DNA of 49,866 nt from Candidatus Woesebacteria bacterium RIFCSPLOWO2_01_FULL_39_10. Its GTDB lineage: Bacteria > Patescibacteriota > Microgenomatia > UBA8517. The translations under genes and the position numbers were made by a program. Within the stretch, counting starts at the first letter, position 1; each line of letters starts with the position of its first letter. This document shows positions 21,792 through 42,657 of this stretch, one piece after another. The notes beneath the pieces were generated by a model. The model did no database searches and was not told where the DNA came from. It saw only the letters and a program-made list of their open reading frames with translations. The DNA lies in the NCBI GenBank assembly GCA_001793015.1, contig MGHC01000026.1:13829-63694 (forward strand), given 5' to 3'.

Positions 21792-21894
21792 TTTACTTGA
21801 ATAACTTCGTCTATCTAAATTAATAATAACATACTGTCATTCTCTAATTGCAAGAATAACTCAAGAATAACTTTTGACTTTTGACTTTTGACAT
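21771..21894 (-). repeat. 21-nt perfect direct repeat that duplicates the start codon region of the VirB6-like gene
   Basis: ttgacttttgacttttgacat occurs at 21771-21791 (the real start, MSKVKSQ) and again at 21874-21894. The 82-nt spacer contains GTTATTCTTGA-like words. Confidence 0.85.
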
Positions 21895-21906
21895 TTAGTT
21901 ACAAAA

Positions 21907-22278
21907 TTAATTGCCATCTTTTAAAAGTTTTCTTCTGAAGGCAGTAATCTGATTTGCTAATTTTTGTGCATTCTCTAAGTATTGAATGTGAATTTCTTTT
22001 GAAATGTATCTATCTAACAATGCTATATCGAGGCAAGCGACAATTTCATTAATAGAAGTATGAGATTTATTTAAGAAATTGGCAAAATCTTTATCAGTAC
22101 TCCGATCAGTACCCTCTGCGATATTTAGTATGATTGAATTAGCGGCTCTAATTATTTGATCCCCTAAAAGATATAACTCGTAATCAGGGAAGTATTTCTT
22201 AACTAGCGTTTTAATTTCACTTCTAAAAACAAGTGCATCTTTATAAACTTGAAATTTTCTGAATCTAAATTTCTTCAT
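21907..22278 (-). CDS. Four-helix-bundle protein (23S rRNA IVS protein / Avd family), copy 2
   Basis: 123 aa, with IILNIAEGTDRSTDKDFANFLNKSHTSINEIVACLDIA. Confidence 0.8.
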   Translation of the reverse strand: MKKFRFRKFQVYKDALVFRSEIKTLVKKYFPDYELYLLGDQIIRAANSIILNIAEGTDRSTDKDFANFLNKSHTSINEIVACLDIALLDRYISKEIHIQYLENAQKLANQITAFRRKLLKDGN

Positions 22279-22303: not shown

Positions 22304-22789
22304 TCACAGGTTTTGTTGGCAAAAACTAAGTTTATATATCTGACCTGCATTATCGGGATTTGCGGATGCAGGAGTCGCAACGTCCACGTTCAATTTGCAG
22401 GCCTCTTCCGGGGTTATTCCTAGTTTTTCTAAGAAAACTTTTTCAGCGGCATCCTTCTGTTCGTTAAATGGTGAGGCAGAGATTGTAATATAAAAAAGGG
22501 TTTGGTCGGGAAGATAGAAAATATGAAAATTGTCTGTGCGGGAAATTGTGACATAACTTTTTTTATCGAAATTTTCTATACCCTTTGTAAAGTCATTCAT
22601 TCTTACACCCGAAATTACGATTGTTGGGCCTTTAAATCTATTATTCCCAGGCAAGAATTTAGAAAGAAATTCGGTGTTTTTAAAAACTTTTACCAAAACC
22701 AATACACAAAGTATAAGAAATATAAAGAGAATTACTCTTTTTACGTCCCTTCCCGGCTTTGTGTTTTCGTTTTTTTTCTTTATGGGCAT
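22304..22789 (-). CDS. Hypothetical membrane-anchored protein
   Basis: The ORF track gives 22304-22843. I prefer the ATG at 22789 (MPIKKKNEN...), which overlaps the upstream stop by 10 nt. It has a single TM helix (VILFIFLILCVLVLV). Confidence 0.5.
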   Translation of the reverse strand: MPIKKKNENTKPGRDVKRVILFIFLILCVLVLVKVFKNTEFLSKFLPGNNRFKGPTIVISGVRMNDFTKGIENFDKKSYVTISRTDNFHIFYLPDQTLFYITISASPFNEQKDAAEKVFLEKLGITPEEACKLNVDVATPASANPDNAGQIYKLSFCQQNL

Positions 22790-25700
22790 AGGCTGGCTAC
22801 AAGTTGCATGCAAATAACATTGGGTGATCCCCAAGGACTCCAATCTTGTCCACCTCCGGACATTGCAGAAGCGTAAGCTGCGTTTTCGTCTGGATCAAAA
22901 TACCCAAAAAATGTTTGTCCATCGCCGTATAAACAATAATCAACTGTCGGTTGGTCTAGTATTTGGCAGGAGGGATTGGGGTACGATGTATAACTAAAGG
23001 CCGCTGCACACACAGGCGGGTGAACTAAGAGGTTTATTTGGAAAAGACCAGCTGAATAGTCGGGAGTCGCTCCAATTCTACAATCATCATTTAAGGCTGT
23101 GGGGTTTCCACCTGACTCTCTGTTGCAAATAACTGAGGCTTGGTTGGCGTGACATCCTGGGAACCATTGGCTAAGATATGTTGGGCTGCAAAGCCCCGTT
23201 CCGATCTGACATCTTCCTCCGGTCGGAGCAGCCGGTGCTGTACAAAGGGATTGAAATACTTGATAAGCATCTTTTAAGGGAGAAAAGCCGGCAAGGGGTT
23301 CTCCCGTTAGACCCATACAGAGAGGTCCCTCAGGGGGTGGGATATCATGAAGCATGTGTAAATCGGCAAACTCGACATAATTTTGTGTAAAGATCCAGCT
23401 TAGGGCGTCTTGTACTCTTTGGGCCTGTTCTGCATAACTTAAGCCACCTATACAATAATTAGAGTTAGTTGCATGGATAGTGTTGAAGCCGTATTCAGTC
23501 AGCCAGATTTTATTGTTTGAATAGCCCCTTGTAACCATAATATCTCTTATTGCCAAAACGTTATTACGGTCTAAGGGGTCAGTATTTCGATTTGCCCCAT
23601 AAGGGTGAAACGTAACTGCGTCAAATCTTCCATTATATCGGTAATAATCATCTACTGCGGAAGCTCCGGCTCCCCCCAGCGGGGCCGCTGCGGCGATTGT
23701 AAGGCTTGAGTCAACTTGCTTTGCGGCATCACTGAATTGATTTAACCAAAATACATATAGCGCAGGATCGAAGTTCCCATTGGGATCATAGTTCCCATTA
23801 ATACCTTTGAAGTTTTCCCACATATCTGGCTCATTCCAAAATTCCCAATTTCTAATTCTTGGGTATTTTCTGACCACGTCTTGTGCAAACTGTCTAAATT
23901 CATTTACAACATTTTGATCATTACGATCCATTACACATTTTGTTTGATTACGGATACAACTGTTGGGATCGTTAGGATCTCCGGGATTGATAGTATTCCA
24001 AGGAGGAATTGTGACAAAAATTCCAATTATTGTTGTATTGTTTCCCAGCATCGTGTTTACGGCTGTATCAATTCCATTTCCATTCCAGTCATAAACGTCT
24101 TTTGTTGCTCCTTCAACTGCCGCCCAGTCTATTCCGAACCTGACGTTGGTTACTCCCAAAGTTCTGAAGTGTTGGGTAAATTGGGTAGGATTGTCCTTGA
24201 TTCTCCAAGATTGGGCAGAGATTCCACACCTTGCTCCTCCAATTTGGCCGAGAGGGGCGTATGGGTCGTTGAGTGGGTCTGGGGCAGACGTACATCCTTG
24301 GCCAAAACCCTTAGGTCTAAGCGTTTTTTGAATACAATTTAAAAAGTATTCATGAATTCCGCCGATATGGGGAAAGTAAAGTTCGGCTTGAGACCCCAAC
24401 CGCCCGGTTGCTGGATTTCCTGCAAGTGCACCACCGGTGACTGTATAGTTTACGGGAGAGGCTGCCGGAATGTCCCAAAGCCGTCTAATAGGACGCCCCG
24501 GCGCATCCTCGATTTTTGGAAATATTCTTTTAAATACGGCGGCTGGACCTGCAACCAAACGAGACCAAACCTCATCGGCTAGAGGAGTCTCCGTTACAGT
24601 CTGAAGAGCAATTGTTGCCGTACTTGAGCAATTTTGAGTTAGATTAAGGTTACTGCCAAAATTGGGATCAATTCCGCAAGTTAGATTACCTGTTCCTGTG
24701 TTGCAGGCTAATCCTGGGCAACATTGACCAAGCGATATCCCCGAAGCCTCGCAGACTTGCCCCGAAGGTATACAAGTAGGAGCAGCAGGAGTGCATCCGA
24801 CACCACAGAATTGATTCAGTCCGCAGTCGACTTGACCATAGTAATTGCTACAGTTCCAGTTTGAAACAGGTAGGGGCTGACAAGAACCAGATCCACCTGT
24901 TAATTTACTACAAAGATTTCCTTGAAGAGTGGGGTCATAGATAGCAAAATCACAGGACATTTGGGCAGTATACTGAATCGTTGCGGTCAGATTTGAGGCA
25001 AAAAGAGAGTCTCCCGGGTTTGACCGAATTTCGCGTATGTCGCAATATTGAGCACTTGGCGCAATGGCAGGATCTGCTGGAGCAGCAAGATCTGCTCCTT
25101 TATACGAGTGAAGAGTTTGTAAAAGCTCTCCAAGCTCGTTTGATTCAAGCATGTGGGAAAAATAAAGAAAGGAAGGATTTTGTTTTGTAATTTGAGAACT
25201 TAAGATCGTTACACTACTGGAACCCGCGGGTTGAATGGAATAAGTATCTAATCTACTTTGACCAACCCTATCTTCAGTTGAGGAGAAAGGAATATAGGAA
25301 AACATTGTTGAACTTGCAGGATTAAATAATCTCCAGAACTGATACCGTATCCAATAAACAAAAAATGGACTGGGATTAACTGGAAGGGGTGGGGGTGGTT
25401 GTCCGGGATTAACTAAATTCCAATACAGATTCCATATTGAACTAAGAAGAGATATATTCCAGATGCGCTGAAGTGGCGGTGCTTGAGTTACAAAGTCAGA
25501 TAGCCTAGCCCCAGGTGGGATGAGTGGTGGGAGTTGAAGACCCGGATAACAGTGAGATACCCCAAGAAGGATGTTCGAGCACGCGACAATCTGATTATGA
25601 CGAATATTACCCTGCTGTTGTTTGTCTACCTCTTGAATTCTTCTGACGACCTGGCTCTCCCAAGAAAGCAGTCTTTTCAAAGGTCCGGAAAAGTCTATGA

Positions 25701-27843
25701 TCCTCTTTTCTCCTTGGGTTGTAAGATTTCCAAAGATGTCAGTATCTGGCGGGTCATATTCTGCTCGGCCTATTACTCCATTTAAATACCAACTGACATA
25801 TTCGTTTACTTTTTGTGGGTCGGTTACTGTTTCGTCTTGAAATCGGCTGTTTATAACTCTAAAAGGGTCAGACTGGTTACCTATTGAAGGTTCAGTGTAA
25901 CCCATTATCGGTAATTCTGTATCTTGAGGGTCGATGGTGATATCCCTGGTTCTTGAGATGTTAAAAACGCAAGTTTCGGTTCCGTCGCCGTTATCACGAC
26001 AATCAGGAGAGTTTGCGCACTGATTAGGAAGGGTCGGATCGCAAGTGTTTAAAGACGGAATGCATTGTGAAGATGGAGTAGTGGATACCGAAGTACATTG
26101 CGGAGCAAGCCAGTGTTCAATATCTGGCTCATTCGGCCCAGTAATTGCGTAAACAGTCCCGCTTACTTGACTGTCAATTGACCGAAGGAAGGCTCCGTAT
26201 TGTGATGCTGACGGACCACTTGTCCAACTTGCATCACCAATTCGGATTATCGGAATAAGGTTACGACTATGTGCGATACCAATATCTGTAAGGACTGGGG
26301 TTTCGTCGATGCCGTTGGAAATAGCTAGTGTGTAAATCATTCCATCGACTCCATCGACGTCTGAGTAAAATTGTGACGGGGCTGAGTAATATACAGCAGA
26401 ATTCGCTCCAAGTTTTGTGCACGGAAGGCTACCGCAGGCGGTTGCAAAGTCGGATATCTTTCCCTGGTTCAGTAAATTTGGATTCCAAGTTGCGGGATCG
26501 TAATTTCCGTAACCGAAACCGTTAAAGAATAGCGCCCCTAAGTAACTGGAATCTCCCTTTACTAACGACATTTGTGTTCCAAGATCGCCCAGTGTTCCAT
26601 CGATAACGCCTGTTTCGGTTACCATTACAGGAAGGTTTAAGCCAGTAGCTGTTCTGAAGGCCGACACGTGTCCGGTAACATTATTACCACAACAGTTATA
26701 AGCGTTTCCTGCGATACCAGTAAGAGATGACCAGTCGGCACCGGCAGCATTCATTGCGCTCGCAATTTGATATGTCACGGGATTTGTGAAGTTAAATGCA
26801 GGAGAAAGAAATTTAATATGCGTTAAAGGCCCTGCGCTTGTTGCGCTGGATATCACACCATTCATATAAGATGCAAGTGCAGTTCCCATACAAGTTGGGT
26901 CAAATCCGATTGGTGAACAATTTCCGCCTCGACAGGCATAGCATGCTGCTCCAAGAGGTGTAGAAGGAACTGCGGGAGGAGAGGAGTAGCTTCCTGAATA
27001 ATTTGAGGGGTCGAATTGTTTATCAACGCTAAAGCTGTCAGTTAAAATAAAATCGTTTCCGCAAAAAAGCGCCAAATCTTCCAAACGCCTATTACAAGGA
27101 CTTGCCTGGTAGGGTCTTAGAGAGTGAAATTCGCCTTCAAAAGGATGAGTTAAGTTTGGCCTCGTTTCGTTACAAGGAACATACGGATCTGGATATGGGG
27201 TGCGCCTTCCAGGCGGTGGAGGATTTGTAACAGAATTACTACAAATTGCAGGAGGACGCTTTGGGTCATATTCTGGATTTCGTACGCTGCAAGAGCCGTA
27301 TGTTTTTGACTCTGGGCAATGACTTACAGGTGAACCGCAGCAGAATACATTTGAGCCGCAGGCCAAAATATCAGTTATTCCAGTCCAGGCACCTGTATTA
27401 AAAGTAACATCTGAGGGTGTGGCAAATTGTTGCCATCCTTTGTCAACGGAAATACCGGCCGGTGTGATAGGACCATCAAAGTTTGTTCCCCAACAAATAA
27501 GGGACGTATTACTCCAACTTGTTCGAGAGCAATAAGGTATAGTTTCCGCAGCCGTACCACAAACTGGGTTTCTAACAGCGTCATAAGCATTTGCTTCCCA
27601 CTGAGTATCGCATTTTACCGCGACCCCCTGTGTATTAATTGTTGCGTCATATAGAATTGCAGGTGGGGTCGGAGCTGCTGTATCGCAGGCACAGTTACTG
27701 CCGTCAGGATTGACGCAATAACAGGCAGCCTTAATTTCTTTTGGAAATGTAAAAAATAGTAAGAAGAAAAAACCCACTAAGAAAGTCAAGAAGTATATTC
27801 TAATAAACTCTTTGTTATTAAAAAAAAAATTGGACAGAAACAT
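22780..27843 (-). CDS. Giant secreted Cys-rich multi-hydrolase with clan GH-A-like TIM-barrel module(s) and a C-terminal lysozyme-like domain
   Basis: 1687 aa with an N-terminal TM/signal (IYFLTFLVGFFFLLFFTF). The GH-A motif is IRNWEFWNEPDMW (Glu codon at 23830-23832) and the nucleophile motif is KIWLTEYGF (Glu codon at 23494-23496). Earlier NEP-like and TE-like motifs are YAITGPNEPDIEHW (about 26111-26150) and VMVTETGV. The C-terminus CNRESGGNPTALNDDCRIGATPDYSAGLFQIN (from 23127 downward) parallels the E...S..DYG.xQIN pattern of C-type lysozyme and lytic transglycosylases. Knottin-like Cys clusters occur throughout. Confidence 0.65.
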   Translation of the reverse strand: MFLSNFFFNNKEFIRIYFLTFLVGFFFLLFFTFPKEIKAACYCVNPDGSNCACDTAAPTPPAILYDATINTQGVAVKCDTQWEANAYDAVRNPVCGTAAETIPYCSRTSWSNTSLICWGTNFDGPITPAGISVDKGWQQFATPSDVTFNTGAWTGITDILACGSNVFCCGSPVSHCPESKTYGSCSVRNPEYDPKRPPAICSNSVTNPPPPGRRTPYPDPYVPCNETRPNLTHPFEGEFHSLRPYQASPCNRRLEDLALFCGNDFILTDSFSVDKQFDPSNYSGSYSSPPAVPSTPLGAACYACRGGNCSPIGFDPTCMGTALASYMNGVISSATSAGPLTHIKFLSPAFNFTNPVTYQIASAMNAAGADWSSLTGIAGNAYNCCGNNVTGHVSAFRTATGLNLPVMVTETGVIDGTLGDLGTQMSLVKGDSSYLGALFFNGFGYGNYDPATWNPNLLNQGKISDFATACGSLPCTKLGANSAVYYSAPSQFYSDVDGVDGMIYTLAISNGIDETPVLTDIGIAHSRNLIPIIRIGDASWTSGPSASQYGAFLRSIDSQVSGTVYAITGPNEPDIEHWLAPQCTSVSTTPSSQCIPSLNTCDPTLPNQCANSPDCRDNGDGTETCVFNISRTRDITIDPQDTELPIMGYTEPSIGNQSDPFRVINSRFQDETVTDPQKVNEYVSWYLNGVIGRAEYDPPDTDIFGNLTTQGEKRIIDFSGPLKRLLSWESQVVRRIQEVDKQQQGNIRHNQIVACSNILLGVSHCYPGLQLPPLIPPGARLSDFVTQAPPLQRIWNISLLSSIWNLYWNLVNPGQPPPPLPVNPSPFFVYWIRYQFWRLFNPASSTMFSYIPFSSTEDRVGQSRLDTYSIQPAGSSSVTILSSQITKQNPSFLYFSHMLESNELGELLQTLHSYKGADLAAPADPAIAPSAQYCDIREIRSNPGDSLFASNLTATIQYTAQMSCDFAIYDPTLQGNLCSKLTGGSGSCQPLPVSNWNCSNYYGQVDCGLNQFCGVGCTPAAPTCIPSGQVCEASGISLGQCCPGLACNTGTGNLTCGIDPNFGSNLNLTQNCSSTATIALQTVTETPLADEVWSRLVAGPAAVFKRIFPKIEDAPGRPIRRLWDIPAASPVNYTVTGGALAGNPATGRLGSQAELYFPHIGGIHEYFLNCIQKTLRPKGFGQGCTSAPDPLNDPYAPLGQIGGARCGISAQSWRIKDNPTQFTQHFRTLGVTNVRFGIDWAAVEGATKDVYDWNGNGIDTAVNTMLGNNTTIIGIFVTIPPWNTINPGDPNDPNSCIRNQTKCVMDRNDQNVVNEFRQFAQDVVRKYPRIRNWEFWNEPDMWENFKGINGNYDPNGNFDPALYVFWLNQFSDAAKQVDSSLTIAAAAPLGGAGASAVDDYYRYNGRFDAVTFHPYGANRNTDPLDRNNVLAIRDIMVTRGYSNNKIWLTEYGFNTIHATNSNYCIGGLSYAEQAQRVQDALSWIFTQNYVEFADLHMLHDIPPPEGPLCMGLTGEPLAGFSPLKDAYQVFQSLCTAPAAPTGGRCQIGTGLCSPTYLSQWFPGCHANQASVICNRESGGNPTALNDDCRIGATPDYSAGLFQINLLVHPPVCAAAFSYTSYPNPSCQILDQPTVDYCLYGDGQTFFGYFDPDENAAYASAMSGGGQDWSPWGSPNVICMQLVASLCP

Positions 27844-27851: not shown

Positions 27852-28172
27852 CTATGGTGCTATTTGGAAATTTAGAATGTTCAATTGTCCGGTAAAAACT
27901 CCGATGAATCGCAGGAATAAATATGATAAAGCAAGAAGTACCATTCCTCCAATTGCGTATGTCAAAGTTTTTTTGGCTTGTTCTATGGCCTTAGGGTCTC
28001 CGCCTCCTGTAATAAACTGAATACCTCCCCAAATAAGCATAAAAAAAAGAACGATGCCTGCAAGTCCAAGTAGAGCAGCAATTGCGTTTTCAAAAATGCC
28101 CTCCAATCCTTTGAGGGTAGCAATTCCACTTATATTGTGAACTCCCGCCTGGGCAAGTAGCTTACTTTCCAT
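27852..28172 (-). CDS. VirB2/TrbC-like T4SS pilin-module protein P1
   Basis: 106 aa. Two TM helices flank FITGGGDPKAIEQAKKTLTYAIGG. An AGAGG Shine-Dalgarno lies 2 nt before the ATG. Confidence 0.7.
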   Translation of the reverse strand: MESKLLAQAGVHNISGIATLKGLEGIFENAIAALLGLAGIVLFFMLIWGGIQFITGGGDPKAIEQAKKTLTYAIGGMVLLALSYLFLRFIGVFTGQLNILNFQIAP

Positions 28173-28242
28173 ACCTCTAGTTTAATTGAAGAATTTGAGA
28201 AGGGCAACTGGTGTATTGATAGAATCTTATAGTTTTGTCCAC

Positions 28243-28266
28243 AAAAAAACCCCGATTTAATCGGGG
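28243..28266 (-). terminator. Rho-independent terminator after pilin P2
   Basis: On the minus strand the sequence reads CCCCGATTAAATCGGGG followed by TTTTTTT (plus-strand A-run at 28243-28249). It lies 20 nt after the P2 stop. Confidence 0.7.
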
Positions 28267-28286
28267 TTCTCTTTTTCTTACTCCTT

Positions 28287-28637
28287 TTATGGAGCTTGTG
28301 CATTCGGGATATTGAGTTGCAATATGTTTACCCCGAAGAATATATTAACTAAGTTGATTATTGCCCAAGCTGCAAAGACTATAACTAATCCAACTAGTGC
28401 TGCGGTGATTTGACCTCGCGCAGCCTCTGTCTGGGCTTTGTCGCCACCTGAAGTTATGTATCTTACTCCACCCCAGACTAGCATGAAGAAGAAAACTAAA
28501 GCTGCGACAATAAGAACTAAAATTATTAGAGCGGAAATAATGTTAGCAATCGTAATGTTATTAAGACCCGAGAACTGTCCTCCAGGGCTAATGTTGATTG
28601 GACTTTGGGCGAGAACTGTTGAAAAAAGTGTTGTCAT
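28287..28637 (-). CDS. VirB2/TrbC-like pilin-module protein P2 (own promoter and terminator; candidate major pilin)
   Basis: 116 aa, with YITSGGDKAQTEAARGQITAALVG between two TM helices. Confidence 0.7.
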   Translation of the reverse strand: MTTLFSTVLAQSPINISPGGQFSGLNNITIANIISALIILVLIVAALVFFFMLVWGGVRYITSGGDKAQTEAARGQITAALVGLVIVFAAWAIINLVNIFFGVNILQLNIPNAQAP

Positions 28638-28670
28638 GAAATTTATTTAATTATCTTTATGCTGATTATT

Positions 28671-28700
28671 ATTATGGCCATCACCAATTCTTTTTGTCAA
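28671..28700 (-). promoter_or_regulatory. Sigma70-like promoter for P2 (TTGACA-N18-CATAAT)
   Basis: On the minus strand, TTGACA is the reverse complement of 28695-28700 and CATAAT is the reverse complement of 28671-28676. The -10 element ends 33 nt before the P2 ATG. Confidence 0.45.
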
Positions 28701-28801
28701 GGGGTAAAATGATCTCAATTTTATCCCCTAACGGACATTTTGTGTGCAAAAAAACTTTTTTCTTGACCCAACTTACATTTCCTGCAAGGTGAGTTTTTCA
28801 A

Positions 28802-29176
28802 TTAAGGTATTCTAATTGCATTAATCATTGACTGAAGGTCGAGGATGTCCGGGAGTCCAAGTAAGGTGGCGATAAGGTCAAAAAGAAACATTGCGGCAAT
28901 TACAGCGACAAAACCGATTGCCCCAGTTGTGATTCTTCTTCTGGCACTTTCGTACGCCGCTTTATCTCCACCAGATGAAATAATACCTAGGGCACCTGTT
29001 ATTAGTACGAACATAAAGTAAAGTGCTCCGATGACTGTTAAAACGCCGATGGTTGTCGACAAGATTTGAGCAAGAATTCCAACGGCTCCTCCAGCACCTC
29101 CCACCAAACCAATAGTCCCTATACCGCTTAAGGGATTACCAATGGGTGTAGGATTTTGTGCAATCAAACTTTCCAT
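28802..29176 (-). CDS. VirB2/TrbC-like pilin-module protein P3
   Basis: 124 aa, with IISSGGDKAAYESARRRITTGAIG between two TM helices. Confidence 0.7.
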   Translation of the reverse strand: MESLIAQNPTPIGNPLSGIGTIGLVGGAGGAVGILAQILSTTIGVLTVIGALYFMFVLITGALGIISSGGDKAAYESARRRITTGAIGFVAVIAAMFLFDLIATLLGLPDILDLQSMINAIRIP

Positions 29177-29178
29177 AG

Positions 29179-29514
29179 TTAAGGGGTAAAGACCTTTAAC
29201 TGTAATAATGCGTTTGCGTCGTTAAAGAGAATTAGTCCAATAACTGCCGCGAGTACGAAAGCCCCTGCAGCAATAATCAGGCCCAAAACGCTATGCCAAA
29301 TTTTTGCACCAGCATCTTGAATTCTTTTTGGGTCACCGCCTGCTGAAAGATAGGCATAACCGGCAAGAATTAAGTTAAGTACTGTATAGATCCCGGCTCC
29401 GACAATCAGAGTTCGCAGAATAATGTTTAGAAGTACCTGTAGTCCATTCACACTTCCTCCGGCAAAAGGACGTAGCCAGGTTGGTACAGGAACACTTCCC
29501 CAAGGATTTTGCAT
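29179..29514 (-). CDS. VirB2/TrbC-like pilin-module protein P4
   Basis: 111 aa, with YLSAGGDPKRIQDAGAKIWHSVLG between two TM helices. Confidence 0.7.
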   Translation of the reverse strand: MQNPWGSVPVPTWLRPFAGGSVNGLQVLLNIILRTLIVGAGIYTVLNLILAGYAYLSAGGDPKRIQDAGAKIWHSVLGLIIAAGAFVLAAVIGLILFNDANALLQLKVFTP

Positions 29515-29518
29515 ATTA

Positions 29519-29845
29519 TTAACCTAAAATACTTACACCAAATGTACTCTCAATAAAACGTACAATCAAAAATGCAACTGCTATTATTATAAAGCCAATG
29601 ATTCCTGCTGTGATAATATTTTTTCCCTGCTCAATCTTTTGCGGATCTCCAGCCCCAGTAATCATATAAAAACCCGCAATAATTATAAGAATTACAAGAA
29701 CAACTCCTGCTACCATTATGGCGTTAGATAAAAGGATGGAGACAAGTTGCCCTAATCCTTCAACGCCAGGGTTAAGATCTCCTAAAAAATGTCCAACCTG
29801 GCCAAAAAAAGATTGGTCTATATCAACCTGCGCAAGATAGTTCAT
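29519..29845 (-). CDS. VirB2/TrbC-like pilin-module protein P5
   Basis: 108 aa, with MITGAGDPQKIEQGKNIITAGIIG between two TM helices. Confidence 0.7.
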   Translation of the reverse strand: MNYLAQVDIDQSFFGQVGHFLGDLNPGVEGLGQLVSILLSNAIMVAGVVLVILIIIAGFYMITGAGDPQKIEQGKNIITAGIIGFIIIAVAFLIVRFIESTFGVSILG

Positions 29846-29914
29846 AGTTAAAGTTTAATACAATACTATGTTAGAACTCAAATATTAGATCTCAAAACCA
29901 TATCTTAGAGCTAT

Positions 29915-30304
29915 TTAACTTCTTTTACCTTTCATTGTCAAAAGACTAGATGCAATCATTTTTCCGATCTCTTTTGCTTCAGACAGGAGTGGCTCTACTT
30001 TGTCTACTTTTTCTAGTTTTGAATCTTCCAGGAGCATCAACCAATAGATAGTTTCGTTAGTGCTTTTAAGGGCAATCTCATAAAATTTTATGAAGTCCCT
30101 TTTAGAACTCGATGACTTGGCTTCGACTAGGTTTGCTCCGATAGAAGTCGCGCAACGTAATAATTGATCTTCGATTATCCAATAAACTCTTTTTTCAGGA
30201 AAATCCTTAACGAAAACAATAATTGATAACGAAAATTGATAGGCTCTGTATTTTACATTAGATCTTAGATTTAAGTTATGGTTTTGAGTTTTGAGATACG
30301 ACAT
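29915..30304 (-). CDS. Four-helix-bundle protein (23S rRNA IVS protein / Avd family), copy 3
   Basis: The ORF track gives 29915-30331. I prefer the ATG at 30304 (MSYLKTQNH...), which avoids overlap with the upstream gene. The signature is TSIGANLVEAKSSSSKRDFIKFYEIALKSTNETIYWLMLL. Confidence 0.75.
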   Translation of the reverse strand: MSYLKTQNHNLNLRSNVKYRAYQFSLSIIVFVKDFPEKRVYWIIEDQLLRCATSIGANLVEAKSSSSKRDFIKFYEIALKSTNETIYWLMLLEDSKLEKVDKVEPLLSEAKEIGKMIASSLLTMKGKRS

Positions 30305-30317
30305 ATGAGTTTGTTTC

Positions 30318-31115
30318 TCATCCAAAAACATTTATTATTGGTGGTAAATTAAGAATTCGTGCAACGAGCTGCACTATCCAGAATGCCACAAATATTACAA
30401 TGAAACCAACAATTGCGTACATAATTTTTTCCCGGCCTGCTGCAATTCCTTTCGGATCTCCCTGAGAGGTAAGAATTTGATATCCACCCATGACAATGTA
30501 AATAAGAATAAGAAAACCAACAATTCCAAAGATGTATGGTAAAAGTGCAGCGACAATATTTCCTACACTACATATATTCGTTAATCCGCAGTTCCAGAAG
30601 TTTGGCAACCCTAACCTAATAAATCTTCCAAATTGTATGCCAGCTCGTCCGACTGGCGGGGGGGTTGGTTGGCAAAATACGCAGGATAAACACTGAGATT
30701 GGCCGCATTGAGATGTCGTACAGTAAGGATCACATGGCAATCCTACAGGTCCTAGGACATCTAGATTTTCAATACAGTTTTTCGGACTCGTTGTACTGGT
30801 ACTTGTTGCTGATATTGAATATCTCCCACGGGCTGTACAATTTACCGAAATGGGGGTTGAATTTTGCCCCAACGCGTCAGTCTGAAATGGGGTGGTTGCT
30901 GAGCAGGCGTTATTATTGAAAGCCAGATTATACCTTGTATTTGCATTTCCATTCGTCAAATTGATATTACCGGGCACACCTGCCGAAAGTGGATTCGGAG
31001 TAAATGTTAGGTTGCACTGCCCAGCTTGTGCATGAACTTTGGTGGGTTGAGATAGGAAAAGCACTCCAAACAAAAGAAAGATAGTTGCAATTAAAGTAAT
31101 TTTAATTATCTTCAT
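30318..31115 (-). CDS. Pilin-module fusion P6: signal peptide, Cys-rich ectodomain, then a C-terminal VirB2/TrbC-like module
   Basis: 265 aa. The signal is LLFGVLFLSQPTKVHAQA. The Cys-rich part is CDPYCTTSQCGQSQCLSCVFCQP. The C-terminus LTSQGDPKGIAAGREKIMYAIVG lies between two TM helices. Confidence 0.65.
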   Translation of the reverse strand: MKIIKITLIATIFLLFGVLFLSQPTKVHAQAGQCNLTFTPNPLSAGVPGNINLTNGNANTRYNLAFNNNACSATTPFQTDALGQNSTPISVNCTARGRYSISATSTSTTSPKNCIENLDVLGPVGLPCDPYCTTSQCGQSQCLSCVFCQPTPPPVGRAGIQFGRFIRLGLPNFWNCGLTNICSVGNIVAALLPYIFGIVGFLILIYIVMGGYQILTSQGDPKGIAAGREKIMYAIVGFIVIFVAFWIVQLVARILNLPPIINVFG

Positions 31116-32506
31116 AATCCTGGAATATTAAGAATTCGTACTCCGATAAGTCTTAAAATATAAACTCCAAAAAGGAGTAATAATAAACCGCTAATAGCTG
31201 CGGTCAAAAGCTCTTTTCCCGCCTGAAGTCTCTGAGGATTTCCTGCTGAGGTTATTACCAAAAATGCTGCGTAGATAATCAAAAGAAAGGCAATGCCACC
31301 TGCAATTCCAATTGCCCAACCGAGAATAAATTCTGCAAAATCATTCTTGTTTGTTATTGGAATGCAGCCGATTGCTGTGTAAAGTTTTCCAGTTAATAAA
31401 GGATCTATGGTTGGATTTCCAGAAGCGTCGCAGTAAACCATGGGTGGTTTGGAAGTAGCAGGTGATGCGGGTACACAACAAATTTGGCCCAAAGAGCAAA
31501 CTGAATTAGGGTCAAGTGGATTATTTATTCCATCTGGGGTGGTTCCTGGAATTGAACCGCAAGTAAACCCAGTAACACATGTTCCAGATTGTCCTGTAGA
31601 AACCCCCGTACATGTGGTGGGAGCCTGAAGGCAACTGAGAGTATTTTCTACGCAATAACCGCCAACGCATTTTTGTAAAAGATTACATTGTCCATTAGCC
31701 CCACAAGTGCCACTTGTATCAGTACAACTAAGACAGACAGTTGGTCGGTAATCGCATTGATAACCAGTAAGGCCTATTCCGGTGTTATAGCATACATATC
31801 CTGGCGGGCATCCACCCCCTCCACAAGTGAGATTATAATCAGTACAGATATTACACGAAGAGAGGGGATCAAATACGCATTGCCCGCTTGCGTTACACGT
31901 TTCTGTAGGACGGCATCTTCCGCCCGCTCCACAGCCCCCAATAGCGGGATTACAAATTTGAGTTGTAGGTAGCGGTTGATTTAGAGTACAACCAGTAATT
32001 AAAGGAATAGCACCTCCATCCAAAATTTGTGTTCGATCTCTGATAATGAAGTAAGGTATGACTCTAATCCCGACTTGGCCGCTTGGATAATTAGATAAGC
32101 CACCTGGTGCTGAATGCGAACCAAGATTTGCGGTTTGTCCAAGAGGACAAATTGTGGGTAAATTACCAGTACAATCATAAATTTGGACATCGTTTGTAAG
32201 TCGGTAAGAAGAAACAACATTAGATGGTCCGCACGGCCCATCGCAACAATCGATTAGTAGACTGTAGGAGGGGTTTGATATAGTACTTAGGTAAACATCG
32301 GCATCAGCTATACCTTGTATTAATCTGCTACTTACGGTAATACTAACTTGAGCAGTTGAACAGCTGGAAATATTTGATAGGACTTCAATTTCACCTGCTA
32401 TACCTGACGGAGTGGGAGTTTGTGCGTAAAGTACGGAATTATTAAAAATGAAAGTCGCTATAAAAATAGTAATAAAGACTACCAAAATCTGAAGTAACCT
32501 TTTCAT
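31112..32506 (-). CDS. Pilin-module fusion P7: signal peptide, large Cys-rich ectodomain, then a C-terminal VirB2/TrbC-like module
   Basis: 464 aa. The signal-like N-terminus is followed by many CxxGxC-type clusters (CNASGQCVFDPLSSCNICTDYNLTCGGGGCPPGYVC...). The C-terminus ITSAGNPQRLQAGKELLTAAISG lies between two TM helices. Its stop overlaps the P6 start by 4 nt. Confidence 0.65.
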   Translation of the reverse strand: MKRLLQILVVFITIFIATFIFNNSVLYAQTPTPSGIAGEIEVLSNISSCSTAQVSITVSSRLIQGIADADVYLSTISNPSYSLLIDCCDGPCGPSNVVSSYRLTNDVQIYDCTGNLPTICPLGQTANLGSHSAPGGLSNYPSGQVGIRVIPYFIIRDRTQILDGGAIPLITGCTLNQPLPTTQICNPAIGGCGAGGRCRPTETCNASGQCVFDPLSSCNICTDYNLTCGGGGCPPGYVCYNTGIGLTGYQCDYRPTVCLSCTDTSGTCGANGQCNLLQKCVGGYCVENTLSCLQAPTTCTGVSTGQSGTCVTGFTCGSIPGTTPDGINNPLDPNSVCSLGQICCVPASPATSKPPMVYCDASGNPTIDPLLTGKLYTAIGCIPITNKNDFAEFILGWAIGIAGGIAFLLIIYAAFLVITSAGNPQRLQAGKELLTAAISGLLLLLFGVYILRLIGVRILNIPGL

Positions 32507-32577: not shown

Positions 32578-33057
32578 TCAGATAGATAATTGTGAGTGTA
32601 GTTTAAAATAAGGAAGAAAGATAACTTCAGTAGTGTTTATCCCCCTTCGCGAAATACCCCGGACGTAAGTCCGCGGATGAAAGCGAAGGAATTTCGTTTC
32701 GGTCGAACGTCGCCAAAGGCTTTGCCGACGGCGCGAGGGATTCCGCTCCCGACGAAGCGCTGGGAGAAGATACCCCGACCGCAAGGTCGTGGGGAGCTTC
32801 ATCTTGATCTTTTCCTCAAGGGATAGATTGGCAACAATTGCTTTTTCGGGTTTGTATTTTCCTATGAAATTTCTCAATGAACGCGTAATTTCAGGTTTTT
32901 TCATTGTAGAAAATTTAGTTTCGACAGGTACAATTGTCTTACCTTTTTCAATTATAAAATCGACCTCGGACTTGTCTTTGGTTCTCCAAAAATGGGGTTT
33001 TGACGGGAATTCTGAAACTAGTCTTAAATTATGAAGAATGTACCCTTTTATTACCAC
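32578..33057 (-). pseudogene. 3-prime fragment of a DUF4143-type AAA ATPase gene, interrupted by GC-rich repeat copy B
   Basis: WRTKDKSEVDFIIEKGKTIVPVETKFSTMKKPEITRSLRNFIGKYKPEKAIVANLS and the final TEVIFLPYFKL fit the C-terminal part of DUF4143 proteins. The roughly 250-aa ATPase N-terminus is missing. The middle 55 aa (MKLPTTLRSGY...SRRGI) are encoded by the repeat. Confidence 0.55.
32638..32816 (+). repeat. GC-rich hairpin repeat, copy B
   Basis: This is the longest copy. Its hairpins include CCGGAC-GTAA-GTCCG(c)GG, GAAAGCGAA-GGAA-TTCGTTTC and CCCCGACC-GCAA-GGTCG(t)GGG (32773-32793). The 3-prime module gagaagatacc...agcttcat lies at 32764-32802. Confidence 0.7.
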
Positions 33058-33317: not shown

Positions 33318-33419
33318 CTAACTACCATCTCTGCCGAACCTGATTGTAGTAATCCTGGCCGAGGAGATATCGATTTTTGTTTACAAAGAATCGGGAAAGA
33401 TCTAAACATCAATTCATAA
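33318..33419 (+). pseudogene. Duplicated 5-prime fragment of the SpoIID-like gene (paralog of 34441-34536)
   Basis: About 85 percent identical by eye over about 77 nt. It translates to TISAEPDCSNPGRGDIDFCLQRIGKDLNINS-stop, compared with TIFAEPDCDNPGRGDIDFCLQRIEDELN in the full gene. Confidence 0.7.
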
Positions 33420-33444: not shown

Positions 33445-33852
33445 ATGGTTAAATTTAACAAGGAGAAACTTGACGTTGTCCGAAAAAGATATAATTTATC
33501 TTTAGTTATCCTTTTTGGTTCTCAGGTTGACGGCAGGGTTCACCCCAAAAGCGATCTAGACATCGCCGTTGTCAGAAATGATCAGAGTTTAGAGCTTAAT
33601 TTAATTAGACTAATTAGTGATCTGATACATATTTTTAATAATGACCGTGTGGATTTGGTTGATTTGACTCATGCCGACCCACTACTATTATTTGCAACGG
33701 CCTCCAAAAGCAGACTTCTTTCTGGGGAAGAGAAAGATTATGAGAACCTTTTATTGCGTGCATATCTTAGATATTCTGACTATATTCCTTATCTTGACAT
33801 GGAAAGAGACTTTGTATTAGGAAAGCTTAAAGATTATGTCGCCACTAGATAA
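33445..33852 (+). CDS. mntA: MntA-type nucleotidyltransferase antitoxin
   Basis: 135 aa, with the minimal nucleotidyltransferase motif LFGSQVDGRVHPKSDLDIAV. Confidence 0.8.
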   Translation: MVKFNKEKLDVVRKRYNLSLVILFGSQVDGRVHPKSDLDIAVVRNDQSLELNLIRLISDLIHIFNNDRVDLVDLTHADPLLLFATASKSRLLSGEEKDYENLLLRAYLRYSDYIPYLDMERDFVLGKLKDYVATR

Positions 33853-34258
33853 ACAGCTAGTAACAAGAAAAGCCAAACTAATAACAGGTGATTTGGAAAA
33901 GCTCAAAAGGTTTGAAAAAACACCCCTTTCGAATTATCTGAGAAATCCTGATACCCAGCTTTTAGTTGAACGATTATTAGAAAAGATCACGTCCAGATTA
34001 ATTGAAATCAATTACCATATTTTAAGACAAGAATTTGGAACATTGCCAAAGGACTATTTTAATTCTTTTGAAGAAATGGGAAAGGTTGGTGTTATTTCTA
34101 AAGAGTTAGCCGAACAAATTGCGCCATCTGCTGGTTTGAGAAATGCGTTAGCTCATGAATATGACACAATTGACCAGTCCCAGGTGTATTACTCGATGAA
34201 AAGGGCTTTAGATCAAATTCCCCAGTATCTTCAATTAATAATTGAATATCTTGGTTAA
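33836..34258 (+). CDS. hepT: HepT-type (DUF86, HEPN) toxin
   Basis: 140 aa, with the HEPN motif RNALAHEYD (Rx4H). It overlaps mntA by 17 nt. Confidence 0.8.
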   Translation: MSPLDKQLVTRKAKLITGDLEKLKRFEKTPLSNYLRNPDTQLLVERLLEKITSRLIEINYHILRQEFGTLPKDYFNSFEEMGKVGVISKELAEQIAPSAGLRNALAHEYDTIDQSQVYYSMKRALDQIPQYLQLIIEYLG

Positions 34259-34299: not shown

Positions 34300-36081
34300 A
34301 TGATTATTCAGTTAATTTCCAAATTTTTAAAATTCAAGAATCTTGCATGGTTATCATTAGCCCTTTTAACTTTTTTATTTTTTTCACTATTCACTAATCA
34401 CAAATCACCCTCCGGGCTAGAAGCCCTCAAGGGCTGGCAGCTAGTCACTATCTTTGCCGAACCTGATTGTGATAATCCCGGACGAGGGGATATTGATTTT
34501 TGTTTACAAAGAATCGAGGATGAGTTAAATCAACTCAAACCTGCTCAAGAATATAACAAAAAAGAGCTCGCTGGTTTACGAAGCCAAATTACAAGTTTGG
34601 AAAAAAGGATTGTTGGTTTGTCAAACCAACTTAAGGTTGTTGAAGAAGATATAGGGGTTCGAGAGGAAGATCTTGCTTATGCCCAAGCAATTTTTATAGA
34701 AAAAACTAAAAATCACTATAAATTCATTCGTCTTTACGATCCGCTTATGCCTTTTCTTTCATCAGAAAACGCCTCATCTTTTTTTAGAGAAATAGTTTTT
34801 AGGCAAAAAGCAGCAAATGAAGATATAAAGACAATGGAAAAGTACGCTGATGATCTTTTAGCTTTAAAAAAGGACAAGGAAACTCTTGAAAAAAATAAAA
34901 AAAGCCTTTCTTCGCTTCGCACCCAAGTAAATAGCAGGGCTACATTTTTAGCAGGAGAAGTTGAGAAAACAGAAAAATACCTAGCGACTTTGACAGCAAA
35001 GCAAGAAGAACTTTTAGCTCTTAAAGCTGGAGGATTTCAGACTTCTGTTGGTGAAACCCCGGCAACTCTTGAACCGTGTTCCGGTCCTCCGGGATCTTCA
35101 AACTATTGCGATCCTGGATTTAGACCCGCATATGCCGCATTTTCTTTTGGTGCACCGCATAGGACTGGTATGAGTCAGTATGGGGCTTTAGGAAGAAGTA
35201 AGTCGGGACAATCAGCAGAGCAGATTTTGTCTGCTTACTACTCTGGTTCTGAATTAAGAAAAGATTACCCTATTCCTGCAACGATTGGAGTTTCAGGTTA
35301 TGGAAGAGTTTCTTTTGAAGAAAATTACTTACTTGGTATATATGAAGTGCCGGAACGTTGGGGTGATGAAGGAGGGTTCGAAGCCCTAAAAGCCCAAGCA
35401 GTTGCCGCGCGATCCTATGCGCTGGCAGTTACTAATAATGGTAGCGGTACAATTTGCCCTACAGAATCTTGTCAGGTTTATAAACCCCAACTCAAAAGTG
35501 GAAAATGGGCTGAAGCTGTTCGGGCAACTCGTGGTTGGGTAATGGTTAGAGGAGGTTCAGCCGCGACGACTTATTATGCTTCCACCTCCGGCGGCTTCAC
35601 GATTTCTCAGTGGGGTTGGAGCGGAATAAAAGATGCAAAAGATGACAGTTGGCCAAGCCAAGCTTATGAGAAAATAGCCAGCTCTCCCTGGTTTTATAAA
35701 GCCTGGTACAGAACTCGAGGAGGGGCAACCTGTGGAAAAAGTAATCCTTGGTTAACTGGAGAAGAGGCGGCAGATATAATAAACGCCTGGGAAGTACTAT
35801 ATAAAGGAGGAGGAGATGTGTCGAGAATTTCGCCTGTTGATACAAATTGCTGGAGTGGCAATCCTTATTCGAAAGGCGAGCTGGCTGGAATTGGAGGTTA
35901 TACAAGCGTAACAAGCGTGTCGACCGTGTATTCAAACTCCGGATCAACTTTAAATATTTCTTTTGGTACTAATAAAGGGACAGTTACAATAACAGGCGAA
36001 GAATTTAAAAGAGCGTTTAATTTACGCGCACCCGGTTATATTGGTCTTAAAAGTAGCCTATTTAATATAGAGAAATTGTAA
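34300..36081 (+). CDS. Membrane-anchored coiled-coil protein with a SpoIID/LytB-like peptidoglycan hydrolase domain
   Basis: 593 aa. An N-terminal TM helix is followed by a roughly 200-aa coiled coil. The SpoIID-type motifs are GMSQYGALGRSKSG, ALKAQAVAARSYAL, CQVY and YYASTSGGFT. Confidence 0.75.
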   Translation: MIIQLISKFLKFKNLAWLSLALLTFLFFSLFTNHKSPSGLEALKGWQLVTIFAEPDCDNPGRGDIDFCLQRIEDELNQLKPAQEYNKKELAGLRSQITSLEKRIVGLSNQLKVVEEDIGVREEDLAYAQAIFIEKTKNHYKFIRLYDPLMPFLSSENASSFFREIVFRQKAANEDIKTMEKYADDLLALKKDKETLEKNKKSLSSLRTQVNSRATFLAGEVEKTEKYLATLTAKQEELLALKAGGFQTSVGETPATLEPCSGPPGSSNYCDPGFRPAYAAFSFGAPHRTGMSQYGALGRSKSGQSAEQILSAYYSGSELRKDYPIPATIGVSGYGRVSFEENYLLGIYEVPERWGDEGGFEALKAQAVAARSYALAVTNNGSGTICPTESCQVYKPQLKSGKWAEAVRATRGWVMVRGGSAATTYYASTSGGFTISQWGWSGIKDAKDDSWPSQAYEKIASSPWFYKAWYRTRGGATCGKSNPWLTGEEAADIINAWEVLYKGGGDVSRISPVDTNCWSGNPYSKGELAGIGGYTSVTSVSTVYSNSGSTLNISFGTNKGTVTITGEEFKRAFNLRAPGYIGLKSSLFNIEKL

Positions 36082-39438: not shown

Positions 39439-39560
39439 TTGGTGTACCACTTCGCTAAAGCTTCGCGGCACACACTCCTAGACAAATAAATAGCGATTGA
39501 GTGTTACCGAAAGGTGGCCGTGCCACGCGAAGCTCTTTACATATAGTAAAGAGCGGAGTG

Positions 39561-39918
39561 TGGAGACGGAGGGAGTCGAACCCTCGTCCGAAAAGCCCAG
39601 TAACAAACGCCTACAAGCGTAGCTAATTTTATAATTTCCTTTGGTCCTTACCAATTAGCAGGATGAATCAAAGTAAGATTTATATTTCTTAGACTAAATC
39701 TCTAAATCAAAAGATTAAGCTGCATCTCAACAGGTTTATGCCTATCCGTATCGGTTGAGAAACGGGTACGGTAGACATTCAACTTAGCTTAAATAAGCGT
39801 AGTCGAAATCTAAATCGCGGTTATCAGCAATTATTTTTTTTGATTTCTGATTAACGAGTGTAAATCAAACTCGGCTTGCAGTTTGTAAAAGTACTTCCCG
39901 TCGAAACCGGTCGTCCCC
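39561..39918 (-). ncRNA. ssrA: tmRNA (ssrA)
   Basis: On the minus strand the 5-prime end is GGGGACGACCGGTTTCGACGGGAAG. The 3-prime end is GGACGAGGGTTCGACTCCCTCCGTCTCCA, a tRNA-like T-arm and acceptor complementary to the 5-prime GGGGACG. It sits directly downstream of smpB. The candidate tag ORF is at 39828-39784. CCA is not encoded. Confidence 0.85.
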
Positions 39919-39925: not shown

Positions 39926-40363
39926 TCAATCTAAACTTTTACCTCTAAGTTCGCGTTCTATGTCACGCTTTATGTCGCGTTTTTTAATTAATTCCTTCTT
40001 CTCGAACTTTCTTTTTGTCTTGGCTAGTGCTACTTCAGCCTTAATCAGAGGTCCTCTAGTATACACTTTTGTGGGTACGAGAGTCAATTTCTTTTGCTTA
40101 ATTTTTCCTTCAATCGAGATGATTTCGTTTTTGTGCATCAAAAGCTTTCGCATTCGTGATGGATCATGGTTTAGTCCGTTCGCAATGGGCATATTTGCGT
40201 TAATTAGGAAAAGTTCACCGTTTATGATTTTTGCAAATGCATTCGAAATATCGATATGACCTTCTTTTATAGATTTAACCTCGCTTCCGGAAAGGACCAT
40301 GCCAGCCTCGAACTTTTCTATAAGTTGATAGTTAAACTTTGCCTTCCTGTTTATAACCTGCAT
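39926..40363 (-). CDS. smpB: SsrA-binding protein SmpB
   Basis: 145 aa, with NRKAKFNYQLIEKFEAGMVLSGSEVKSIKEGHIDISNAFA. Confidence 0.9.
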   Translation of the reverse strand: MQVINRKAKFNYQLIEKFEAGMVLSGSEVKSIKEGHIDISNAFAKIINGELFLINANMPIANGLNHDPSRMRKLLMHKNEIISIEGKIKQKKLTLVPTKVYTRGPLIKAEVALAKTKRKFEKKELIKKRDIKRDIERELRGKSLD

Positions 40364-41083: not shown

Positions 41084-41224
41084 ACGGTTTGGTTTACTAT
41101 GTTGTGCCGTACTTCAAGAAACTTTGAAGTTAGTCATTTTTATATTTTTCACCAATTTCGTCTCGCCGTAGCTAAGCCGAATCTCGCCTACGTCCTGCTC
41201 AGCAGGACTTCGGCGAAGCGAAGG

Positions 41225-41309
41225 CGGAGGGTGTGGGAGTCGAACCCACTCTGGACTTTCATCCAGCAAGTTTAGCAAACTTGTCTCGTGACCGTCTGAG
41301 TCACCCTCC
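41225..41309 (-). tRNA. tRNA-Ser (anticodon GCT)
   Basis: Hand fold: acceptor GGAGGGT/ACCCTCC, a 3-bp D stem, anticodon stem CAAGT/ACTTG with loop TTGCTAA, a long variable arm CTGGATGAAAGTCCAGA, and T arm GTGGG-TTCGACT-CCCAC. CCA is not encoded. Confidence 0.85.
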
Positions 41310-41349
41310 AAATTTATTGAGTTAGATTTCAATTATACCAAAGGTTCTC

Positions 41350-41925: not shown

Positions 41926-42025
41926 TTTATCATTCCACCGCAGATTTTTGGCGACATTTCTGGTAAAATAGCTGGGTAGTGTGTTCCTTTAGGTTAAGGC
42001 GGAACGCACTTTTTCTTTTAAAACC

Positions 42026-42097
42026 GCCCCTGTAGCTCAACGGATAGAGCGTCGGTTTGCGGAACCGGAAATACCAGTTCGATTCTGGTCGGGGGCA
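42026..42097 (+). tRNA. tRNA-Arg (anticodon GCG)
   Basis: Hand fold: acceptor GCCCCTG/CGGGGGC, D arm GCTC-AACGGATA-GAGC, anticodon stem TCGGT/ACCGG with loop TTGCGGA, and T arm ACCAG-TTCGATT-CTGGT. CCA is not encoded. Confidence 0.8.
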
Positions 42098-42656: not shown

Positions 42657-42657
42657 A

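Follow-up and report, generated by a model that had tools for sequence, protein, structure and literature searches.

A conserved tandem array of divergent T4SS_pilin-family genes in a Woesebacteria chromosome, with a candidate adhesin-bearing subunit

What might a bacterium build from a row of divergent pilin-like genes, two of which carry large cysteine-rich domains? The question is raised by a stretch of 49,866 nucleotides (nt) from Candidatus Woesebacteria bacterium RIFCSPLOWO2_01_FULL_39_10, hereafter the window. Its pilin block (27852–32506) contains seven same-direction, minus-strand open reading frames (ORFs), P1–P7, each carrying a two-helix pilin module. Comparison with related genomes places these genes in a fixed array of eight orthologous positions. 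We consider it moderately likely that the region is a type IV secretion system (T4SS) pilin block in which a variable, adhesin-bearing subunit is mounted on a heteromeric filament or stalk.

The pilin array

The features of the block are listed below by their positions in the window; the position number of each pilin refers to the conserved gene order described in the next section.

27852–28172, minus strand: P1, 106 amino acids (aa), small pilin of position 8, separated by 8 nt from the downstream gene for a giant putative hydrolase
28287–28637, minus strand: P2, 116 aa, position-7 pilin, candidate major subunit
28802–29176, minus strand: P3, 124 aa, position-5 small pilin, after a 2-nt gap from P4
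29179–29514, minus strand: P4, 111 aa, position-4 small pilin, after a 4-nt gap from P5
29519–29845, minus strand: P5, 108 aa, position-3 small pilin
29915–30331, minus strand: gene of the 23S_rRNA_IVP family, encoding a four-helix bundle, between P6 and P5; not a pilin
30318–31115, minus strand: P6, 265 aa, position-2 pilin with a signal peptide and a ∼150-aa cysteine-containing ectodomain
31112–32506, minus strand: P7, 464 aa, position-1 pilin with a signal peptide, a cysteine-rich ectodomain and the two-helix module

The start of P6 and the stop of P7 overlap by 4 nt. The P6 protein is A3A75_03045 of Ca. Woesebacteria RIFCSPLOWO2_01_FULL_39_10, at 100% identity. An earlier annotation made from the DNA letters and translations (the sequence-only reading) had described seven ORFs sharing a C-terminal module. 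Translations and a module alignment bear this out at the coordinates given above, and all seven loop motifs quoted in that reading are present verbatim.

A fixed eight-position order in Microgenomatia

The comparison set comprised 80 species-level Microgenomatia loci with a P7-type module (L001–L080). All ORFs of these loci were searched with a hidden Markov model (HMM) built from the seven modules of the window, which recovered 459 pilin ORFs. At 37 loci there are exactly eight same-direction copies, the first long and the other seven small. Position-specific HMMs find the complete order 1-2-3-4-5-6-7-8 in 36 of the 80, and most of the remaining loci are cut off by contig ends. In an all-against-all comparison, proteins from the same position in different genomes score 84–122 bits (45–62% identity), versus 20–78 bits (26–44% identity) for proteins from different positions, whether within or between genomes. 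Orthology is thus defined by array position. Eight anciently separated, co-linear paralogs argue for a heteromeric assembly whose members have distinct roles, and their positional orthology argues against interchangeable antigenic variants.

The window maps onto this order with P7 at position 1, P6 at 2, P5 at 3, P4 at 4, P3 at 5, P2 at 7 and P1 at 8. Position 6, the closest paralog of position 7, is missing, and the window is the only locus that lacks just this position. A 164-nt spacer between P3 and P2 (28638–28801) stands where relatives have the position-6 gene. The closest relatives of the window encode enlarged position-6 proteins (196 aa in L001, 296 aa in L002 and 172 aa in L005). The flanks are shared as well: most of the 18 related loci mapped have a divergent SpoIID-like gene upstream of the array and genes for an SLT_3 protein, a polytopic protein, PrgI and VirB4 downstream.

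Family membership and topology of the module

The seven C-terminal modules align as two transmembrane (TM) helices around a short loop, TM1-[ST]-x-G-[DN]-P/K-...-G-TM2, with two invariant glycines and 23–42% identity between paralogs of the window array. An HMM built from the seven modules matched no further ORF in the window. PF18895 (T4SS_pilin) is the best Pfam match for six of the seven ORFs and the second for P4 (DUF6336, E 0.014, versus PF18895, E 0.02). Four ORFs exceed the PF18895 gathering score of 26.6 (P1, E 2e-11; P2, 5.9e-11; P5, 3.8e-10; P6, 2.4e-8), and three fall below it (P3, 3.3e-4; P7, 5.8e-4; P4, 0.02). The latter three nevertheless reach 104–145 bits with position-specific HMMs made from orthologs; P4 attains 145 bits with its class HMM despite its sub-threshold Pfam score. 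P5 also exceeds the cut-off of the NCBIfam model NF045849 (43.9 bits; cut-off 40), which matches P6 as well (E 3e-7).

As an outcome that would count against it, the sequence-only reading had named placement of the module among holins or bacteriocin immunity proteins. Among 38 family members tested by hmmscan, all 38 matched PF18895, and no holin or immunity family appeared among their Pfam matches, even at E ≤ 10.

Hydropathy and AlphaFold2 (AF2) models agree with the PF18895 architecture, in which a short loop connects two long hydrophobic helices within some 70–100 aa. In P2 the helices span residues 30–62 and 67–101, with a predicted local distance difference test score (pLDDT) above 90, and in P7 residues 387–419 and 424–458. 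The loop sequence G-D-P-K/E-x-x-E-x-A is also the helix-capping loop of designed helical hairpins (PDB 7rmx, 7unj and 7rmy), which fits a tight helix-turn-helix in which Asp-Pro N-caps the second helix.

From the positive-inside rule, the signal peptides and the distribution of cysteines, we infer that the modules are N-out/C-out hairpins with a cytoplasmic basic loop, like conjugative pilins in the membrane pool. The density of lysine plus arginine is 0.17 in the inter-helix loop versus about 0.06 in both tails, the big N-terminal domains are always accompanied by a signal peptide, and cysteines are almost confined to ectodomains. P1–P5 have 6–11 residues up front, no h-region and no possible upstream extension. 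In P1, P2, P3 and P5 this short N-terminal peptide ends in [LIV]-[LIF]-A-Q (in the P2 family, for example, MTTLFSTVLAQ). Two hydrophobic residues followed by A-Q occur within the first 14 residues in 12–37% of proteins per small-pilin class versus 0.2% of control ORFs, an enrichment of more than 50-fold, and the motif is near-invariant in the position-7 family. It resembles the cleavage sites of P6, P7 and genuine VirB2/TrwL proteins, and the small pilins may be processed or terminally modified.

Expression architecture of P2

Two signals surround P2:

28700..28671, minus strand: P2 promoter TTGACA-N18-CATAAT, sigma-70-like, 11 of 12 consensus matches
28268–28243, minus strand: hairpin AACCCCG-ATTAAAT-CGGGGTT followed by T7, intrinsic-terminator-like, downstream of P2

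Both had been proposed in the sequence-only reading, which took P2 for a separately and strongly expressed major subunit, and both were located. Gene spacing and promoter distribution across the compared loci lend this idea comparative support. The gaps between positions 1 to 6 have medians of −2 to 6 nt; the median widens to 15 nt between positions 6 and 7 and to 52 nt between positions 7 and 8, where 34 of 36 loci have at least 30 nt. We scanned the 120 nt upstream of each gene for sigma-70-like promoters with at least 10 of 12 matches. Position 7 has such a promoter in 30 of 37 loci, versus 1–6 of 37 at the other positions, and the position-7 motif is almost always TTGACA-N17/18-[A/G/C]ATAAT. 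Its −10 box often ends just 6–14 nt before the start codon (L004–L078), which would give a leaderless-like mRNA. P2 of the window has a 33-nt AT-rich leader with no obvious Shine-Dalgarno sequence. A hairpin followed by a T-run comes after position 7 in 10 of 46 loci (22%) versus 2–12% elsewhere, and the window and its closest relatives have a clean version of this terminator. The best 120 database matches of P2 are 66–100% identical to it. Promoter, spacing and conservation together lead us to infer that P2 is probably the abundant structural, or major, subunit.

Ectodomains of P6 and P7

The sequence-only reading had described P6 and P7 as signal-peptide-led, cysteine-rich sequence placed in front of the module. 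This holds: P6 contains 12 cysteines, P7 contains 33 and P1–P5 none, and both long proteins have an N-terminal hydrophobic signal segment in addition to the two C-terminal helices. P7 begins with a signal peptide (aa 1–28, ...LYA|QT), followed by a beta-rich N-terminal ectodomain, cysteine-rich repeats, a cysteine-bracketed beta-hairpin and the PF18895 module (aa ∼385–460). The predicted hairpin lies between two cysteines (C359 and C381 in P7) that are a conserved pair before the position-1 module.

The plan of P7 is widespread. More than 120 relatives of 255–528 aa, from Woesebacteria, Microgenomates and Blackburnbacteria, all share the signal peptide, the cysteine-rich ectodomain and the conserved C-terminal module, and three of them (P0002, P0004 and P0005) align across 92–96% of P7. 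Position-1 proteins have a median length of 214 aa (range 76–631), with 50 of 86 reaching at least 200 aa; 65 of 67 long ones have a signal segment and two TM helices, and they contain 4–36 cysteines. No other position has a module as conserved as theirs (62% mean identity). Within the same protein pairs, the position-1 module is 50–74% identical and the ectodomain 16–30%, with large indels. BLAST found no relatives of the P6 and P7 ectodomains in the 80 loci beyond two marginal matches (E 0.002–0.003), both to the linker that immediately precedes the module in L007.

A long position-2 protein is rare (at least 200 aa in 4 of 74). Non-identical relatives of P6 number just two in 5.8 billion clusters; both keep its CxxYCxxSxCGxxxCxxCVFC segment, without the ∼70-aa Ig-like insert. 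P6 itself was found on 23 contigs from separate JGI/ENA samples. Six of these, independently assembled, were inspected. All six have the gene order 464-265-IVP-108-111-124-116-106-1687 (protein lengths in aa) and are 99.95–100% identical to the window. The P6 and P7 fusions are genuine; the six contigs and the full-length P7 homologs exclude the frameshift artefact that the sequence-only reading had named as grounds for rejecting it.

Three Avd-like IVP genes in the window prompted the idea that the ectodomains are targets of a diversity-generating retroelement (DGR). This candidate was rejected, as the window holds neither a DGR-type reverse transcriptase nor template/variable repeats. Its sole reverse transcriptase-like match is an RNase H/RVT_3 protein (3637–4062), and a repeat scan returned none involving the coding regions of P6 or P7.

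The T4SS neighborhood

Downstream of the array lie the following genes:

22780–27843, minus strand: giant secreted protein, 1687 aa, 66 cysteines, C-terminal SLT_3 lysozyme-like domain
19776–21791, minus strand: polytopic membrane protein with a signal peptide and ∼8 TM segments, VirB6/PrgH-like candidate
15948–16946, minus strand: PrgI-family (VirB3-like) protein
13266–15188, minus strand: VirB4-like ATPase (P-loop_TraG, AAA_10, weak CagE_TrbE_VirB)

The array lies 12.7 kb from the VirB4-like gene, with the genes for the PrgI-like, polytopic and SLT_3 proteins between them. The gene of the giant protein starts 8 nt after P1, and its product is about twice the size of its orthologs (800–1300 aa). 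It has an additional weak match to a glycosyl-hydrolase core and is a candidate VirB1-like cell-wall hydrolase; an SLT_3 gene comes after the pilin array in most relatives inspected. The polytopic protein may be a divergent counterpart of VirB6, which published HMM surveys describe as ‘scarce’ in Microgenomatia. It measures 671 aa, versus 461–584 aa in mapped relatives, and has an extra C-terminal Hint_2-like segment (aa 522–559, E 2e-4). The presence of dnaA (6637–8007), with dnaN, rnpA and yidC nearby, indicates that the locus adjoins the replication origin. Neither a relaxase nor a coupling protein was found among the scanned window ORFs of at least 100 aa, which were nearly all of them. 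The locus is an oriC-proximal, chromosomal T4SS of the Patescibacteria type, in agreement with the system described by Quinonero-Coronel et al. (2025, PMC12102498).

The three 23S_rRNA_IVP-family genes (29915–30331, 21907–22278 and 16998–17375, all on the minus strand) share 23–27% identity with one another. The one inside the array is flanked by 32-nt inverted repeats (29882–29913 and 30266–30297) and another by blocks of TTTTGAC repeats (21763–21793 and 21866–21896). In relatives, IVP genes sit elsewhere in the array (L035, L024, L066 and L001) or are absent, which suggests that they are sporadic, possibly mobile, insertions. An MNT/HepT toxin-antitoxin pair (a Polbeta nucleotidyltransferase and a HepT RNase) lies within 33445–34258, between two direct repeats of 83 nt that share 84% identity (33324–33406 and 34447–34529). 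The second repeat falls in the SpoIID-like gene, in its 5′ portion; in many mapped relatives this gene directly abuts the position-1 pilin. The pair looks like a cassette insertion with target duplication. Upstream of P7, a 159-aa ORF (32578–33057, minus strand) matches only the C-terminal end of DUF4143 and is probably the remnant of a truncated ATPase gene, its homolog in L001 being 422 aa long. Further along are housekeeping genes, namely a transfer-messenger RNA gene adjoining smpB (39558–39918 and 39926–40363, both on the minus strand) and five tRNA genes, four for serine and one for arginine (41223–43424).

Proposed assembly and alternatives

The reading that we favor, a pilin block with a variable, adhesin-bearing subunit, builds on features with direct support. 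The genes belong to the PF18895 family and keep a conserved order of orthologous positions, the position-7 promoter recurs across loci, the fusions are real, and the module is conserved where the ectodomain varies. The block would encode seven of the eight anciently diverged PF18895 paralogs that Microgenomatia keep in order. Each pilin would be a membrane hairpin of two hydrophobic helices, with the basic [ST]-G-G-D-P-K loop inside and both termini outside. The tightly packed and probably translationally coupled genes P7-P6-(IVP)-P5-P4-P3 would supply low-copy minor subunits. P2, additionally transcribed from its own conserved strong promoter, would become the high-copy structural subunit, and P1 would be co-transcribed with the giant SLT_3 cell-wall hydrolase. 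A VirB4-driven machine would then extract the hairpins from the membrane into a heteromeric surface filament or stalk. On this scaffold P7, and here also P6, would display a disulfide-rich, fast-evolving ectodomain that contacts the surface of a partner or host cell, and the conserved module would dock the ectodomain-bearing subunit into the common structure. By analogy, a tip or adhesin role for the ectodomains is plausible. A more specific picture, for Microgenomatia and perhaps other Patescibacteria, is an eight-pilin T4SS appendage in which position 7 forms the shaft, a priming or tip complex contains a position-1 pilin with its hairpin plugged into that shaft, and the hypervariable ectodomain chooses the host; we regard this picture as tentative, possible rather than probable.

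A number of results weigh against a pilus with an adhesin, beginning with the name VirB2/TrbC-like that the sequence-only reading gave to the module. The T4SS_pilin family name and the T4SS context uphold it, but no comparison established homology to classical VirB2/TrbC, which may nonetheless be remote relatives. PF04956 was matched by 3 of 38 family members, with a best E of 1.1, below many unrelated TM families. An hmmsearch of the PDB with the seven-module profile returned no pilin, only designed helical hairpins sharing GDPxxxExA. In a Foldseek search of the PDB with the AF2 model of P2, nothing reached E ≤ 0.001 and no pilin was among the top 50, although the two-helix hairpin is a generic fold, too simple for a discriminating comparison of this kind. 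We also compared a 303-sequence module profile by hhalign with VirB2/TrwL proteins of R388, Oligella, Pseudomonas, two Xanthomonas and pTiC58. The probability was 1.4–7%, and the score exceeded those of all 100 column-shuffled controls; we set the match aside as evidence of homology since the aligned registers are inconsistent. To our knowledge, pilus formation has been demonstrated experimentally for no PF18895 member. As for the ectodomains, the AF2 model of P7 gives a beta-rich fold with low confidence (pLDDT mostly below 60), and Foldseek returns only generic Ig/FnIII-like beta-sandwiches (E ≥ 0.08; RbmA, PsaA and NPC2 among the weak matches), so that these matches assign no function and ‘adhesin’ is an analogy. 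The compared loci share phylogeny, so their counts are not independent; promoters and terminators were called from consensus matches, in DNA that is AT-rich; and the terminator, kept in only about 22% of loci, is enriched rather than generally conserved. Finally, monoderm T4SSs normally lack pili (PMC12102498, PMC12857230).

The last of these points, together with the undetected homology to classical VirB2, favors the main alternative: a non-filamentous membrane complex of fixed stoichiometry, part of a channel or a platform, to which the P6 and P7 modules would contribute a two-TM anchor. Eight distinct conserved subunits suit such a defined complex, as does a position-1 module that is the most conserved part. 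A dedicated strong promoter at position 7, however, better suits a polymerizing major subunit than an equimolar complex, and the size of the proteins and their hairpin-with-basic-loop plan match those of conjugative pilins. Curators of Pfam and NCBIfam likewise name such proteins pilins, as does a structure-based annotation (Wang 2023, PMC10633639). We hold a membrane complex to be rather unlikely, though it is the strongest competitor. We think it improbable that the paralogs are interchangeable pilins serving antigenic or host-range variation, as has been suggested for such arrays by analogy with Bartonella and Anaplasma (PMC12102498). The low identity of paralogs within the array (23–42%) and the hypervariable position-1 ectodomain would agree with that proposal. 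Against it, orthologous positions recur in the same order in 36 genomes, with 45–62% identity within positions versus 26–44% between them, and the packed, overlapping genes suggest co-expression instead of switching. A search for repeats, invertible elements and DGR template/variable pairs was negative, and variation is restricted to the ectodomain of one subunit.

Two further explanations carry very little weight. One would make the module an unrelated two-TM family (holin, bacteriocin immunity or phage), its link to the T4SS being coincidental; a helical hairpin is indeed generic and its Foldseek matches are non-specific. We judge this very improbable given the Pfam results for the 38 members (PF18895 in all, holin or immunity families in none), the conserved synteny with VirB4, PrgI and SLT_3 genes, and NF045849, which ties the module to a transfer protein of a Mycoplasma integrative and conjugative element (ICE). 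The chance that P6 and P7 are artefactual frameshift fusions is negligible: all six inspected contigs, of the 23 with P6, contain the same 464- and 265-aa ORFs in near-identical sequence, the architecture recurs in more than 120 homologs, and a signal segment plus two TM helices is found in nearly every long position-1 protein.

Relation to published and classical systems

The sequence-only reading had called the amplification of the pilin gene unusual. This is right by the standard of classical proteobacterial T4SSs, but not within Patescibacteria, where 441 arrays of 2–11 pilin genes have been published (Quinonero-Coronel 2025, PMC12102498) and are described as particularly numerous in Microgenomatia. 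Amplification is thus already documented and the norm for the phylum, and our findings refine a known kind of locus. At least some of the published ‘VirB2’ calls in Patescibacteria rest on PF18895. Four features appear to be undescribed in the literature searched: the fixed eight-position architecture, the conserved dedicated position-7 promoter, the systematic combination, at position 1, of the module that is conserved best with an ectodomain that is disulfide-rich and hypervariable, and, in this lineage, the nearly unique position-2 ectodomain together with the loss of position 6. Literature searches found no cysteine-rich or ectodomain-fused pilins of the Candidate Phyla Radiation.

A 2024 perspective calls the role of the T4SS in Patescibacteria ‘completely unknown’ (PMC11665869). 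In the sole genetically tractable Patescibacterium the T4SS is essential, and the predicted pilin series of the T4SS cluster of Southlakia epibionticum is reported as essential (Wang 2023, PMC10633639), a point repeated in a 2025 review (PMC12857230). In this setting, a fixed array with one promoted and one variable subunit predicts which gene encodes the shaft, which genes encode minor subunits and which is a candidate determinant of host specificity. Positional orthology speaks against the published analogy with antigenic variation. If the proposal is true, a host-recognizing position-1 pilin would be a VirB5-independent, pilin-borne adhesin, a design unknown in other T4SSs.

Published Patescibacteria arrays are the closest counterparts of the block. 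The pilin series of Southlakia epibionticum ML1 (within SEML1_0006–0019), the ‘Sec secreted array’ of TM7x and the 441 arrays share with it tandem divergent PF18895 genes and a monoderm-type T4SS near dnaA, with no relaxase or coupling protein nearby. Eight-position orthology, the position-7 promoter, the ectodomains and the loss of position 6 go unmentioned in the papers searched or read. Classical VirB2/TrbC/TrwL/TraA pilins (PF04956, PF05513) resemble the window pilins in their two hydrophobic helices, short basic loop and extracytoplasmic termini, and their genes likewise neighbor VirB3- and VirB4-like ones. Signal-peptide cleavage in these proteins falls at a site ending in A-Q (for example AAAQ|G), a pattern also seen in P6, P7 and certain proteins of position 7. 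They differ in having a long cleaved signal peptide, whereas among the window pilins a hydrophobic signal segment is limited to P6 and P7, and classical loci, unlike the window, encode one pilin and a separate VirB5 tip protein. We know of no natural VirB2 with a 150–350-aa ectodomain.

Minor pilins of type IV pili and type II secretion systems (FimU-PilVWX, GspH-I-J-K) and the tip and base pilins of sortase-assembled pili offer a functional analogy only. Like the proposed assembly, minor-pilin sets combine conserved low-copy paralogs with an abundant major subunit and one tip domain; their fold, assembly ATPase and processing are unrelated, and a prepilin peptidase motif is absent from the window pilins. 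Bartonella and Anaplasma phagocytophilum likewise have VirB2 arrays that arose by tandem duplication, but their copies are recent, variable and thought to be antigenic, whereas the window paralogs are ancient and orthologous by position. Detectable similarity extends to NF045849 (Mbov_0395/MMCAP2_0565, a Mycoplasma ICE ‘pilin-like conjugal transfer protein’), which also belongs to a monoderm-type T4SS. It differs in that one small gene on a mobile element encodes it, outside any array, and that it lacks an ectodomain; its function is putative. The match fits the proposed descent of the Patescibacteria systems from monoderm MPF-FATA (mating-pair formation, class FATA) machinery, and it qualifies the statement in PMC12102498 that systems of the MPF-FATA type lack pilin genes.

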